Part shown: piece after piece, positions 2,561-7,216 of the stretch | Position numbering within the stretch: position 1 is the first letter of the stretch | Layout of the letters: the number at the start of each line of letters is the position of its first letter | DNA from: Mycobacteriales bacterium | GTDB taxonomy: Bacteria > Actinomycetota > Actinomycetes > Mycobacteriales > Nakamurellaceae | Length of the DNA stretch: 24,000 nucleotides | Assembly (NCBI GenBank): GCA_038245175.1 | Contig: JBBRSR010000001.1 | Location: 191,744-215,743 of the forward strand | Direction: 5' to 3' | Translations under genes and position numbers: made by a program | The notes under the pieces: model-generated | The model's database searches: none | What the model was told of the DNA's origin: nothing | The model's input: the letters and a program-made list of their open reading frames with translations, nothing else

Positions 2561-3922
2561 ATGTTGCCGCTCGAAGATATTGAAGAAACCACCACCCCTG
2601 CCAAGGGGTCATTGAAGTCCAGGATCCGCAAGCCGTGGTTCATCGCCGCGGCCGCCTGTGTACTGGCCGTTGCCGCCGTCGGCGGCACGCTGAGCGCGAT
2701 GAGCAAGACCGTCACCATCAACGTCGACGGCCAGGCCCAGACGGTTTCCACGCTGTCCGGATCGGTCAGCGGCGCACTTGATTCCGCCGGCCTGAAGATC
2801 ACCGAGCACGACACCTTGGCCCCCGGGGCCGACACCTCGATCTCGGACGGTTCGACCATTGTGATCAATCGCGGCCGGCTGGTGACGCTGACCGTCGACG
2901 GTCAGCCGACCTCGCTCTGGACGACCGCGCTCACTGTCGACCAGGCTCTTGCCCAGCTGGGCCGCGACTCCGCGGACTACCAGCTCTCGGCCGATCGGTC
3001 GCGCCTCATCCCGCTCGAGGGCCTGTCCCTGACTGCCGACACCCTGCACTCGGTGTCGCTGTCCGTGAAGGGCGTCAACAAGGAGATCGCCACCCCGTCC
3101 AAGACGGTCGGCGATCTGCTCAAGGCACAGAACGTCGTCCTCGGGGTCAATGATCGGGTCACCCCCGCAGTCGGCGCCGCGCTGACCGCGGGCCTGAAGA
3201 TCGCGATCGTCACCCTGCCGACCGTGACCGTCACGGACGGCACCAACGCCGCGGTGCCGTACGTCAGCGACGCCACGGATGTGGCCGGCCTGCTGGCCGC
3301 TCAGGGCATCGCCGTCGGCGCCGCTGACATCGTCACCCCGGCCATCGGCACGCCGCTGACCGAGGGTCTCCAGGTCTCGGTGGCTCGCGTCACCGTGCAA
3401 CAGGTGACCGCAACCGAAGCGGTTGCGCAGCCGGCCGATGAGACCGTGAACTCCTCCTCGCTCGCCGCGGGCACCAGCGAGGTCAAGCAGCAGGGCCAGG
3501 CCGGCTCGGCCACCGTCACCTACGACGTGACCCTGACCAACGGCGTGGAGACCGGGCGGACCGAGACGGGCCGGAGCGTCATCACCAGCGCACTGCCGAC
3601 CATCACCCGCGTCGGCACGGCAAAAGCCGCATCATCGGGCTCGGCCGGCGGCAACACCGGCGTAGTGCCAACCTCGAGCGGCAGCTCGGGCGTCAACTGG
3701 GACGCCATCGCCCGCTGTGAGTCGACCAACAACTGGTCGATCAACACCGGCAACGGCTACTACGGTGGCCTGCAGTTCGACATCGGTACCTGGCTGAGCA
3801 ACGGTGGCGGCGCCTATGCTCCCCGCGCCGACCTGGCGACCAGGGCGCAGCAGATCGCGGTTGCCGAGACCACCTACGCCTCACGCGGGCTGTCCCCCTG
3901 GGCTTGCGGGTACGCCGGCTGA
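2561..3922 (+). CDS. rpfB: RpfB-type resuscitation-promoting factor, paralog 1: TM anchor, four DUF348-like modules, G5, canonical Rpf transglycosylase domain
   Basis: N-terminal TM helix ([22 protein letters not shown]). Repeated TVT.xVDG...INRG DUF348-type modules and a G5-like segment ([30 protein letters not shown]). C-terminus is [32 protein letters not shown]...[17 protein letters not shown]...PWAC, the canonical Rpf signature with the catalytic Glu. Confidence 0.92.
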
Positions 3923-3948
3923 CCCGTTCAGCCTGCAACGCAGACCGC

Positions 3949-3994
3949 AACGCGCATCGGCCCTCATCCAGATGGATGGGGGCCGATGTGCGTT
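3949..3994 (+). terminator. Long stem-loop, likely intrinsic terminator after rpfB paralog 1
   Basis: AACGCGCATCGGCCCTCATCC (3949-3969), loop AGAT, GGATGGGGGCCGATGTGCGTT (3974-3994). This gives 21 bp including two G-U pairs. It begins 27 nt after the stop codon and is followed by GTTGTTGCG. Confidence 0.6.
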
Positions 3995-4109
3995 GTTGCG
4001 TGAATCCGTTGTCACCTGAGTGCTTCCTCGCGCTCCGTGGCCGGAATCGGACGAATACGCGCATCTGGTTGAAACCTGAGGGAGCTGGGTCCAATCCAAC
4101 ACGCGCTCA

Positions 4110-4177
4110 TTGCTGAAGTTGTGATGCATCCGTTATCGTCCCGAGATAACAGCCGGGATGGGGAAGTCTCGGGTGTG
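4110..4177 (+). promoter_or_regulatory. Predicted promoter plus conserved 5' leader hairpin, copy 2 (upstream of rpfB paralog 2)
   Basis: TTGCTG (4110-4115), 18-nt spacer, TATCGT (4134-4139), then CAGCCGGGATGGGGAAGTCTCGGGTGTG (4150-4177). CCCGAGA (4140-4146) can pair with TCTCGGG (4167-4173). Confidence 0.45.
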
Positions 4178-4272
4178 TCCAACTGCTGGCGCGACGTCCT
4201 GCGCTGACGGCTGCGCGCGCCTGCCCGCCACACCCCATCAAGCCGGGCTCGTCCACAGTTGGGTATTCGGTC

Positions 4273-5763: not shown

Positions 5764-5794
5764 CCGTTTGCCCAGATCAGCAAGTTGTGGGCAG

Positions 5795-5820
5795 GGTCAT
5801 ATGTGACCTTTCTATTTCCT
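5795..5820 (+). terminator. Weak hairpin plus T-rich tract after paralog 2
   Basis: GGTCA (5795-5799), TATG, TGACC (5804-5808), followed by TTTCTATTTCC. The stem is only 5 bp, so support is weak. Confidence 0.3.
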
Positions 5821-5827
5821 CGCATGA

Positions 5828-5892
5828 TTGCCGTGCATTCATTTCACCGTTATTGTTCTGTTATACAGCCGAGATGGGGAAGTCCCGGATGC
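5828..5892 (+). promoter_or_regulatory. Predicted promoter plus conserved 5' leader hairpin, copy 3 (upstream of rpfB paralog 3)
   Basis: TTGCCG (5828-5833), 17-nt spacer, TATTGT (5851-5856), then CAGCCGAGATGGGGAAGTCCCGGATGC (5866-5892). Confidence 0.5.
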
Positions 5893-5986
5893 CCTTGATT
5901 TGACAGAGCGAACGCCGTCGTCGCCGACGGCCGCTAGCGACGGCATCCAGCCCCCTGCTCGGAAGACCGAGTAAATTTGGAGCATC

Positions 5987-7216
5987 GTGAGCCTGCCCGA
6001 AGCGCAGACCGAAGATCTACGTGAATCGCCTGAAGAATCTGCCACAGACATCGCATCATCTGCTACCCCTATTTCAGGCCGGTCCGGCTGGACCCGGCTA
6101 CGCAAGCCCGTGCTGATCGCCGGCGTCTGCACCCTCGTCGCCGCGACGGCCTTGTCCGGAATCTGGGCGGCCAGCGGCAAGACCGTCACCATCGAGGTCG
6201 ACGGCCAGAGCCGTGAGGTCAGCACGCTGTCCGGATCGGTCAGCGGCGCTCTGGCGTCCGCCGGGATCGCCGTGACCGAGCACGACACCGTCGCTCCCGC
6301 CGCCGACGCGGCAATTTCCGACGGGTCCAGGATTGCGATCAATCGCGGTCGCCAGTTGACCGTCACCATCGACGGCGTCTCGCATGTCATCTGGACCACT
6401 GCACTGACCGTCGATCAGGCGCTGGCCCAGCTCGGGCAGGGTCAGCAGAGCCTGGAGCTGTCGGCAGACCGATCGCGGGCGATTCCCCTCGAAGGGATGA
6501 CGCTGACGGCCGATACTCTTCACGTAGTGTCGCTGACCGACGGCACCGGCCTTCCGACGACGTCCGCCTCCAGTGCCGTCAACGTCGGAGCCATGCTCGC
6601 CGAGAAGCAGATCGTCCTCGGCCCGAACGACACCGTCGCACCGGCCCCGACCACGCCCATCACCGACGGACTCGCGGTCAGCATCACCCGCACCGTGATC
6701 ACCTCCGCGGTGGCCGACGAGGCGGTGGCGCAGCCCGCCGACGTTCCCACCGAGGATCCGAATCTGGCCCGGGGCACCAGCACCGTGACCATCGCCGGGT
6801 CGGCCGGCACCGCCGCGGTGACGTACCAAATCACCATGGTCAACGGGGTGCAGACCGACAAGCACGAGGTCAGCCGCACCGTCACCGTCGCCCCGGTCGC
6901 CTCGCAGATCTCGGTCGGTACCAAGTCGTCACTCACCTACGTCGGCAACCAGGTGTTCTTCAACGACACCGAGTTCGGCGTGAACTGGGATGGCCTGGCC
7001 AACTGTGAGTCCACGCACAACCCGCGGGCGATCAACGGGAACCCGTCCGCCGGCCTGCCGACCTATGGCTTGTTCCAGTTCGACCTGCCCACCTGGGCGT
7101 CGGTCGGTGGATCCGGCAATCCGATCGACGCCACCCCCGAAGAGCAGATCTTGCGCGCCAAGCTGCTCTTCCAGTCGCGCGGACTCGAGCCGTGGGCCTG
7201 CCGGTACGCGGCGTAG
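5987..7216 (+). CDS. RpfB-architecture muralytic protein, paralog 3: TM, three DUF348-like modules, G5, variant transglycosylase-like domain; sits directly upstream of rsmA
   Basis: GTG 5987 is preceded by GGAG (5979-5982). It shares an identical 26-nt stretch with paralog 1 (2750-2775 = 6224-6249, encoding TLSGSVSGA). C-terminus is [39 protein letters not shown]...[27 protein letters not shown] at 7214-7216. Confidence 0.88.

Follow-up and report, generated by a model that had tools for sequence, protein, structure and literature searches.

A tandem array of three RpfB-type genes with two kinds of catalytic domain between tatD and rsmA in a Nakamurella-like bacterium

Gene content of the locus

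The slot between tatD and rsmA-ispE was analysed in a 24,000-nt stretch of contig JBBRSR010000001.1 (assembly GCA_038245175.1; Mycobacteriales, Nakamurellaceae), referred to here as the window. The slot contains three intact open reading frames (ORFs), all on the forward strand, coding for proteins of 453, 496 and 409 amino acids (aa) that have the domain layout of the resuscitation-promoting factor RpfB. They are designated genes 1 to 3, and their products P1 to P3 (Table 1). By Pfam, the slot is flanked by metG and tatD upstream, and by rsmA (ksgA), ispE and an ABC-F gene downstream. The genome is Nakamurella-like, its best relatives being Nakamurella metagenome-assembled genomes (MAGs) at about 63% identity.

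Each protein consists of an N-terminal anchor, a series of DUF348 modules, a single G5 domain and a C-terminal catalytic domain (the head). The DUF348 model (PF03990) scored 128.6, 119.1 and 89.4 bits in P1, P2 and P3, over four, four and three stretches, the same module counts as in the initial annotation, which had been made from the sequence without database searches. The corresponding values for G5 (PF07501) were 58.3, 51.8 and 60.0 bits. The Rpf domain model PF06737 gave 102.8, 60.0 and 51.2 bits with the whole proteins, and 107.2, 64.9 and 55.3 bits with the isolated heads, compared to a cut-off of 27 bits. A simple hydropathy test found one hydrophobic segment of 19 aa in each protein (mean Kyte-Doolittle value 2.0–2.7), positioned after a charged stretch with five Lys/Arg residues. 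The catalytic Glu of the C-E-S/A motif and a conserved Cys pair are kept in all three heads (residues in Table 1), and the Glu and first Cys align with those of RpfB, RpfC and RpfE. Coordinates, domains and anchors thus agree with the earlier description of three same-strand genes of full RpfB layout, and with full-length identities of 50% (P1 to P2) and 53% (P1 to P3) they are true paralogs. The best scores to the NCBIfam equivalogs RpfC (NF046107) and Rpf (NF046106) were 72.3, 49.0 and 53.6 bits, well short of the cut-offs of 200 and 180, so that the three genes count as relatives, not equivalogs, of those proteins.

Table 1. Features of the tatD–rsmA slot and its borders (positions in the window).
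Feature	Position (nt)	Strand	Evidence or remarks
tatD, upstream slot boundary	1312–2250	+	PF01026 TatD_DNase, 252 bits
Gene 1 promoter/operator block	2305–2383	+	sequence-model match 50.3 bits, E = 1.6e-13
Gene 1 (P1, 453 aa), canonical RpfB type	2561–3922	+	Pfam; 99 bits to RpfB structures of Mycobacterium tuberculosis
Gene 1 anchor	2639–2695	+	hydropathy
Gene 1 DUF348 modules (four)	starts 2705, 2876, 3047, 3218	+	
Gene 1 G5	~3398–3619	+	followed by a 22-aa Ser/Gly linker
Gene 1 catalytic domain	~3692–3907	+	Glu387 at nt 3719–3721; Cys386/Cys449
Terminator-like hairpin after gene 1	3947–3996	+	folding; 23-bp perfect stem
Gene 2 promoter/operator block	4109–4180	+	sequence-model match 54.5 bits, E = 8.2e-15
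Gene 2 (P2, 496 aa), gene-1-type scaffold with variant head	4273–5763	+	
Gene 2 anchor	4381–4437	+	hydropathy
Gene 2 DUF348 modules (four)	first starts 4450	+	
Gene 2 G5	~5176–5367	+	
Gene 2 Pro/Ala linker	5368–5499	+	44 aa, 48% Pro+Ala
Gene 2 junction motif	5500–5520	+	VGNQVFF
Gene 2 catalytic domain	~5539–5748	+	Glu432 at nt 5566–5568; Cys431/Cys492
Gene 3 promoter/operator block	5826–5894	+	sequence-model match 48.4 bits, E = 6.5e-13
Gene 3 (P3, 409 aa), variant type, adjoins rsmA	5987–7216	+	
Gene 3 anchor	6110–6166	+	hydropathy
Gene 3 DUF348 modules (three)	first starts 6179	+	
Gene 3 G5	~6734–6925	+	without linker
Gene 3 junction motif	6941–6961	+	VGNQVFF
Gene 3 catalytic domain	~6980–7198	+	Glu341 at nt 7007–7009; Cys340/Cys405
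rsmA (ksgA), downstream slot boundary	likely start ATG 7239, stop 8111	+	PF00398, 165 bits
Hairpin after gene 3	7254–7301	+	21 bp with one bulge; minimum free energy of region -57.4 kcal/mol, z = -4.65
ispE, downstream slot boundary	8114–9031	+	GHMP kinase domains (Pfam)

Further downstream, an ORF of 387 aa without a Pfam match (nt 14,737–15,900, forward strand) lies in the part of the window with the lowest GC content (0.60) and a high AT skew. It adjoins a pair of genes on the opposite strand (nt 11,781–14,815) that specify histidine-kinase-like and receiver-domain proteins.

Catalytic domains

The heads of P2 and P3 share 75% identity, and each is only 50–51% identical to that of P1. Trees were calculated from the heads of 75 related loci together with RpfB, RpfC and RpfE of Mycobacterium tuberculosis (Mtb), and gave two deep clades. 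The canonical clade (100% bootstrap) holds all the Mtb proteins, those of Pseudonocardia and Arthrobacter, and every first-position Nakamurella gene. The variant clade (98%) contains the heads of Geodermatophilaceae, Frankiaceae-like genomes and Cellulomonas, as well as every rsmA-proximal Nakamurella gene. The division into two catalytic types had been proposed from the letters alone, as had the arrangement in which the gene next to rsmA (gene 3) is of the variant type while the canonical copy is the most distal one, with a strong hairpin after it; both are borne out.

The P1 head matched Mtb RpfB with 99 bits. Among the sequences of solved structures, the P3 head was closest to RpfC (45.8 bits) and RpfE (42.4 bits), followed by RpfB (23 bits). 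An AlphaFold model of this head (mean predicted local distance difference test, pLDDT, 80.5) returned RpfC, RpfE or RpfB as all of its top 14 PDB matches, with template modelling (TM) scores of up to 0.79 (target-normalised). The variant head carries the signature CES-x2-NPRA[IV]N ... GL[FY]QF. A word-indexed protein search with the 83-aa head gave only 13 short fragments and was uninformative, so an exhaustive search of 1.84 billion representative proteins was used instead. This found 503 representative clusters at E <= 1e-10. Among the best 150 of these, about 120 passed a strict test for the variant motif, typically in the form CESGGNPRAVNPAGYYGL[FY]QF, and the rest were near-variants; the proteins were 84–585 aa in length, and only about 30 had a DUF348 stalk. 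Variant-type proteins with stalks go by public names such as 'resuscitation-promoting factor RpfB', 'ubiquitin-like domain-containing protein' and 'YabE (DUF348 family)'. The variant head is an old, large and already known branch of the Rpf family, and for annotation it should be taken as a normal, widespread Rpf subtype that needs no relabelling as SLT or IsaA.

Occurrence in related genomes

Slot contents were surveyed across 75 related loci (given L numbers below), and the counts that follow refer to the 61 loci, the window among them, at which the slot was complete. A single gene was present in 40, the gene being canonical at 30 loci and variant at 10. The order canonical-canonical-variant was seen six times (plus three or four fragmented versions), canonical-variant twice, including N. 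silvestris, and canonical-variant-variant once, in the window itself. Genes with a third, SLT-like head were followed by a variant gene in Cellulomonas (four loci), filled the slot by themselves in Bifidobacteriaceae (three loci), and came after a canonical gene at one locus. The canonical-variant-variant order of the window recurs on three contigs that end inside the slot (L001, L003 and L020), and probably at a fourth locus (L002). Nakamurella-like genomes carry one to three, perhaps four, copies and, where these form arrays, a canonical gene always comes first and a variant gene is always proximal to rsmA. Other families have one copy, either canonical or variant, and in Geodermatophilaceae-like and Frankiaceae-like genomes the variant type is the sole occupant. 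Identities of the flanking genes group the window with the other canonical-variant-variant genomes, next to N. silvestris, with the canonical-canonical-variant genomes farther away.

The initial annotation had contrasted three genes here with one in the reference locus. That contrast is sound in that most of the sampled genomes have a single gene in the slot, but the triple array is not unique to this genome. Three-gene arrays are common in Nakamurella-like genomes, and the array is therefore a trait at the level of this family rather than a peculiarity of one genome.

Some other loci deserve mention. The SLT-like head (WNRESGW...SGAYGIPQALP; PF01464, 18.7–21.7 bits) is found on the same DUF348-G5 stalk and in the same slot, either alone, doubled, or beside a variant or canonical gene (L063, L066, L071 and L074 in Cellulomonas; L060, L069, L070 and L073 in Bifidobacteriaceae; and L025). 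It probably corresponds to the subfamily that Ravagnani et al. (2005) described as 'distantly related to Rpf', an equivalence that is assumed here. In the family Geodermatophilaceae, the head is canonical in one MAG (L045) but variant in Modestobacter and a relative (L047, L058, L059 and L061). Their stalks cluster together in the N-terminal tree, which suggests head replacement at the slot within one family. In Nakamurella leprariae (L040) a variant-type gene adjoins rsmA, with neither tatD nor a canonical gene in the 8 kb upstream, and the locus may have been rearranged.

Promoter blocks and hairpins

Each of the three genes is preceded by a copy of a conserved promoter/operator-like block (Table 1). 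Upstream of gene 1 it reads TTGTCA, 17 nt, TACCGT and a direct repeat, CGTTACC-N4-TGTGATA, followed by CAGCCGGGATGG. The blocks of the window can be summarised as TTGnnn, 17–18 nt, and TAYYGT within CGTTAYY-N4-nG(T/A)nATA, then CAGCCGRGATGG, and the form across families is TTGCC, 17–18 nt, CGTTAYCGT, nn, CGTGAY, a few nt, GCCGGGRTGGGGAA, then CCC(C)GG. A model built from 36 distinct copies was scanned over 1.03 Mb of related loci. It gave 79 matches (three in the window and 76 in loci L001–L064), all on the gene strand, of which 77 lie upstream of an RpfB-type gene and two at contig ends. The block also precedes the middle genes of the other array type, and occurs in Pseudonocardia, Modestobacter, Frankiaceae-like genomes and Umezawaea. 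Overall, about 80 of 117 RpfB-type ORFs have it upstream, and it is mostly absent in Micrococcales, Cellulomonas and Bifidobacteriaceae.

The direct repeats of the three window blocks are CGTTACC-GTAA-TGTGATA, CGTTATC-GTCC-CGAGATA and CGTTATT-GTTC-TGTTATA. The response regulator MtrA binds the rpfB promoter in M. tuberculosis, where its consensus is a direct repeat of c-G-T/A-n-A-C/T-c with a 4-nt spacer, and a similar consensus is reported for S. coelicolor (PMC6265350, PMC5650626). The window repeats fit the published consensus, which is degenerate and derived from M. tuberculosis, and the match serves as a lead to a possible MtrA control of the three genes. A BldD box (TNAC-N5-GTNA) was also considered and ranked below MtrA, as the spacing here is N6.

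The block could also have been part of an RNA leader. Single-sequence folds of the shared leader were no better than those of shuffled sequences (z -0.1 to +1.0), and the alignment fold reached -4.65 kcal/mol with no compensatory pairs or covariation. Because no RNA structure or covariation was seen, the block was treated as a DNA-level promoter/operator. An Rfam scan of the whole window returned chance-level matches only (two microRNA families, and a 25.8-bit match to 'Chloroflexi-1', whose cut-off is 80 bits). A small upstream ORF at the conserved ATG/GTG of the block was rejected, since the orthologous leaders of L004 and L006 differ by indels that would shift the frame, the copy in L029 meets a stop at codon three, and the peptides show no conservation.

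The hairpin after gene 1 lies within an 88-nt stretch (nt 3923–4010) that folds with -53.2 kcal/mol (z = -6.6), and a strong GC-rich hairpin at this position is kept in 11 related arrays. Only a weak terminator-like site follows gene 2. Gene 3 ends 22 nt before the likely start of rsmA, and the second strong hairpin, 38 nt past the gene 3 stop codon, falls within the first ~20 codons of rsmA. It could be an attenuator or terminator that decouples rsmA-ispE from gene 3, unlike the co-transcribed operon of Mtb. Related arrays likewise show strong hairpins after the rsmA-proximal gene. The hairpin in the window coincides with the 'Chloroflexi-1' match.

Origin of the middle gene

The stalks of all Nakamurella-like genes group together regardless of head type (90–92% bootstrap, N-terminal modules) while the heads split deeply, and therefore stalk and head differ in history; this discord reflects either head replacement or homogenisation of stalks within a genome. 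The two classes also differ in construction. A fourth DUF348 module and a low-complexity linker mark the gene-1-type proteins, whereas those of the gene-3 type stop at three modules, lack a linker and have a junction motif before the head (VGNQVFF in the window). Three is also the module number in outgroups with either type of head. The window's gene 2, like its orthologs, combines a fourth DUF348 module (55% identical to that of P1) and a linker with the junction and head of the gene-3 type, and the extra module and linker are held in common only with the gene-1 class. In sliding-window comparisons the similarity of gene 2 switches sharply at the junction, from where it is 64–73% to the gene-3 class and 13–56% to the gene-1 class. 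By its sequence, gene 2 appears chimeric, with a stalk of the gene-1 type and a head of the gene-3 type. The Pro/Ala linker that paralog 2 was earlier said to have gained is real, but a gain is doubtful: low-complexity linkers are typical of gene-1-type proteins in relatives, and so the linker was more likely inherited with the scaffold.

Alternatively, gene 2 might be a plain duplicate of gene 3 or gene 1, with its apparent mixture produced by the loss of ancestral features in one lineage or by diffuse concerted evolution of the stalks. The weak support in trees of N-terminal segments leaves room for this, as do local sequence quirks common to all paralogs of one genome, which suggest ongoing homogenisation, and the first two DUF348 modules, in which P1 and P3 (70%) are closer to each other than either is to P2. 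We nevertheless consider this reading unlikely. The fourth module and linker are confined to gene-1-type proteins and gene 2, while the outgroups of both heads have three modules; class similarity changes sharply at the junction motif; and the gene 2 N-terminus grouped with gene 3 in 0% of bootstrap replicates.

If gene 2 is a chimera, a single unequal crossover is not a sufficient origin. It cannot give the gene order of the window, so that at least two events (duplication and conversion) are needed. In canonical-canonical-variant arrays, a middle gene made by one crossover should join the stalk of gene 3 to the head of gene 1, and there the evidence is mixed: the module count fits, while the similarity of stalk segments leans to gene 1.

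Nature of the variant head

The initial annotation read the heads of paralogs 2 and 3 as closer to an SLT/IsaA-like signature. Taken further, genes 2 and 3 would carry a lytic transglycosylase head of SLT/IsaA type that had displaced the Rpf domain, and the array would combine two enzyme families. There are faint matches in this direction. The SLT model PF01464 (gathering cut-off 21.3 bits) gave 16.3 bits with the P2 head and 11.9 bits with the P3 head, and no match with the P1 head. P2 alone matched the C-terminal model of aggregation-promoting factors, NF052397, at 22.7 bits against a cut-off of 40, this being a family model rather than IsaA/SceD sequences themselves. The first half of the variant domain is also more lysozyme-like, with its ES-x2-N-x-RA-x-N spacing and YGLFQF motif recalling c-type lysozymes (E = 1.1e-5 to PDB 2z2f), which gives the impression of an SLT/IsaA type some real, if minor, foundation. 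Ravagnani et al. (2005; PMC1084345) described a weak, non-significant link to SceA, but for a different subfamily, the one 'distantly related to Rpf'. All of the SLT, aggregation-promoting-factor and lysozyme matches are under curated cut-offs, and the PF06737 scores of the variant heads are three to five times those for SLT. The fold search with the P3 head found Rpf domains only, the whole variant domain aligns with RpfC and RpfE, C-terminal helix and Cys pair included, and the 'SPEEQ' part of the proposed signature recurs in canonical RpfC and RpfE (ASREQQ, ASREEQ). A genuine SLT-like head on the same scaffold looks different (WNRESGW...GAYGIPQ) and is found in other genera. The SLT/IsaA assignment was not upheld, and a second enzyme family in the array is very improbable.

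We give equally little credence to the idea that genes 2 and/or 3 are decaying or non-catalytic, and encode at most wall-binding proteins. Their lower PF06737 scores, the TTG start and weak ribosome-binding site of gene 2, and a low-confidence loop in the P3 head model (residues 42–45) could be read in this way. Both ORFs are, however, intact and have kept the catalytic Glu, both Cys residues, the anchor and the promoter block. Orthologs of both genes are maintained across species-level divergence, and the variant head must function in the several families where it is the only enzyme of the slot.

Age of the copies

Nucleotide identity between the window paralogs is 57–60%, and identity at third codon positions 45–50%, so the duplications are old. 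The stretch of 26 nt earlier noted as identical between genes 1 and 3 is real, and is in fact 27 nt long (nt 2749–2775 and 6223–6249), but since the copies are ancient it carries little weight. By codon shuffling the run is no more than mildly unusual (P = 0.006, uncorrected for three comparisons), which among saturated paralogs is too weak to argue for gene conversion. A recent duplication or an assembly artefact, for which this run would be the sole sign, can be dismissed in view of the low paralog identities, the presence of the same array layout in related genomes, and an independent public assembly (Logan SRR19962014) with an identical gene 3, a 496-aa DUF348-G5-PF06737 gene before it that matches gene 2 in length and domains, and a third gene after.

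Interpretation

The best explanation of the slot is that it encodes three functional peptidoglycan glycosidases of the RpfB family in a lineage-specific tandem array, with two head types and a probably chimeric middle gene, a reading to which we assign a probability of about 80%. RpfB-type enzymes of actinobacteria control wall remodelling, division and exit from dormancy, and cleavage of glycan strands by way of the conserved glutamate is established for the Mtb Rpf domains. Each of the three proteins would be held in the membrane by its N-terminal segment, with the stalk of ubiquitin-like DUF348 modules and G5 outside the cell, placing the head in the wall. There the small, lysozyme-like Rpf domain (PF06737) would cut glycan strands with its CES-motif glutamate; preferences for substrates or partners probably differ between the two head types. 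In the simplest scenario, the ancestor of the Nakamurella-like lineage had a canonical-variant pair, to which a middle gene was added independently in two clades; in the clade of the window, this probably occurred by duplication and by recombination or gene conversion between neighbouring paralogs. Since each gene has its own conserved block, the three would be separate transcription units under common control that could be switched together, possibly by MtrA, with gene 1 ending in a strong terminator.

Several points weigh against parts of this reading. The search for related loci used peptide patterns drawn from genes of the window itself, which biases the sample towards relatives and makes it no census. 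The trees are neighbour-joining trees, and the one for catalytic domains has only about 76 columns. Relationships within the N-terminal modules are poorly supported (bootstrap <= 68%) and similarity within genomes suggests concerted evolution, and therefore the mosaic rests mainly on presence/absence characters, i.e., the module, linker and junction motif. The first possible start codon of gene 2 is a TTG (nt 4273) with no recognisable ribosome-binding site, making its true start or mode of initiation uncertain. Lastly, the degeneracy of the MtrA consensus and the overlap of the repeat with the -10 element mean that the conservation could partly be that of a promoter alone.

A broader view, put forward tentatively and at somewhat less than even odds, is of the slot as a workshop in which a vertically inherited DUF348-G5 stalk repeatedly swaps heads (canonical Rpf, variant Rpf, SLT-like and Firmicute Sps). 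Recombination between paralogs in Nakamurella-like genomes would produce new combinations of stalk and head, with gene 2 as a natural chimera, and the shared, so far undescribed promoter/operator block, possibly an MtrA operator, would travel with every copy.

The locus adds no new enzyme class, and is a case of gene-array evolution in a well-known family; its side results, the chimeric make-up of gene 2 and the wide conservation of the promoter block, are of modest interest. It does amount to a natural experiment, in which three co-located paralogs have one stalk design and one promoter type, two kinds of head and one apparent chimera. The array is thus suited to probing the contributions of the head subtype, in substrate preference or partner binding, and of DUF348 module number, and the block is a concrete candidate for the control of rpfB-type genes outside mycobacteria.

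Comparison with known systems

The closest known counterpart is RpfB of Mtb (Rv1009; tatD-rpfB-ksgA-ispE), which has the same module order (anchor, DUF348, G5, Rpf), the same position in the tatD–ksgA slot, for which synteny has been described (PMC1084345, PMC6009663), and the same downstream genes rsmA-ispE. The gene 1 head is the one that matches the RpfB structures (99 bits), while those of genes 2 and 3 come from a different branch of the catalytic family. Mtb has one gene in the slot rather than three, and RpfB carries three DUF348 repeats (PMC1084345) compared to the four of genes 1 and 2. The MtrA-bound promoter of Mtb rpfB has a parallel in the window blocks that fit the MtrA consensus. 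Reports of a B12-sensing RpfB switch are confined to pathogenic mycobacteria (PMC6009663; bioRxiv 10.1101/2024.07.19.603033). No similar riboswitch was detected in the window by Rfam (no family, cobalamin included, at E <= 1), and the leaders folded no better than shuffled sequences and showed no covariation, the Mtb element sequence itself not being directly compared.

Among solved structures, the Mtb RpfC and RpfE domains (PDB 4ow1, 2n5z, 4cge) come closest to the variant head, in both sequence and predicted fold, and share with it a short GGxG(N/S)xxxA(S/T)xE(E/Q)Q segment. Unlike the variant head they show the canonical motifs NW..N and GG.[QR]F, belong to the canonical clade, and lack a DUF348-G5 stalk. 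Likeness to c-type lysozymes is limited to the first half of the variant domain, in which the ES-x2-N-x-RA-x-N ... YG[IL]FQ[FI] stretch is kept and the P3 loop is of equal length. The position of the second catalytic Asp is a Thr in P3, the Pfam Lys model gave 13.3 bits with the variant head against a cut-off of 27, and the fold search with the P3 head model gave no significant match to any lysozyme.

The single variant-type RpfB proteins of Geodermatophilaceae, Frankiaceae-like genomes and Cellulomonas agree with genes 2 and 3 in slot, stalk and catalytic clade. Their genes are alone in the slot or, in Cellulomonas, beside a gene with an SLT-like head, and are not paired with a canonical copy as in the window. 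A precedent for interchangeable muralytic heads on one DUF348-G5 stalk in the tatD-ksgA slot is set by SpsB/YabE of Firmicutes and by the subfamily 'distantly related to Rpf', through non-orthologous domain displacement (PMC1084345). The heads in those systems are of the Sps/3D or SLT-like kind, whereas both head types of the window are PF06737 domains.

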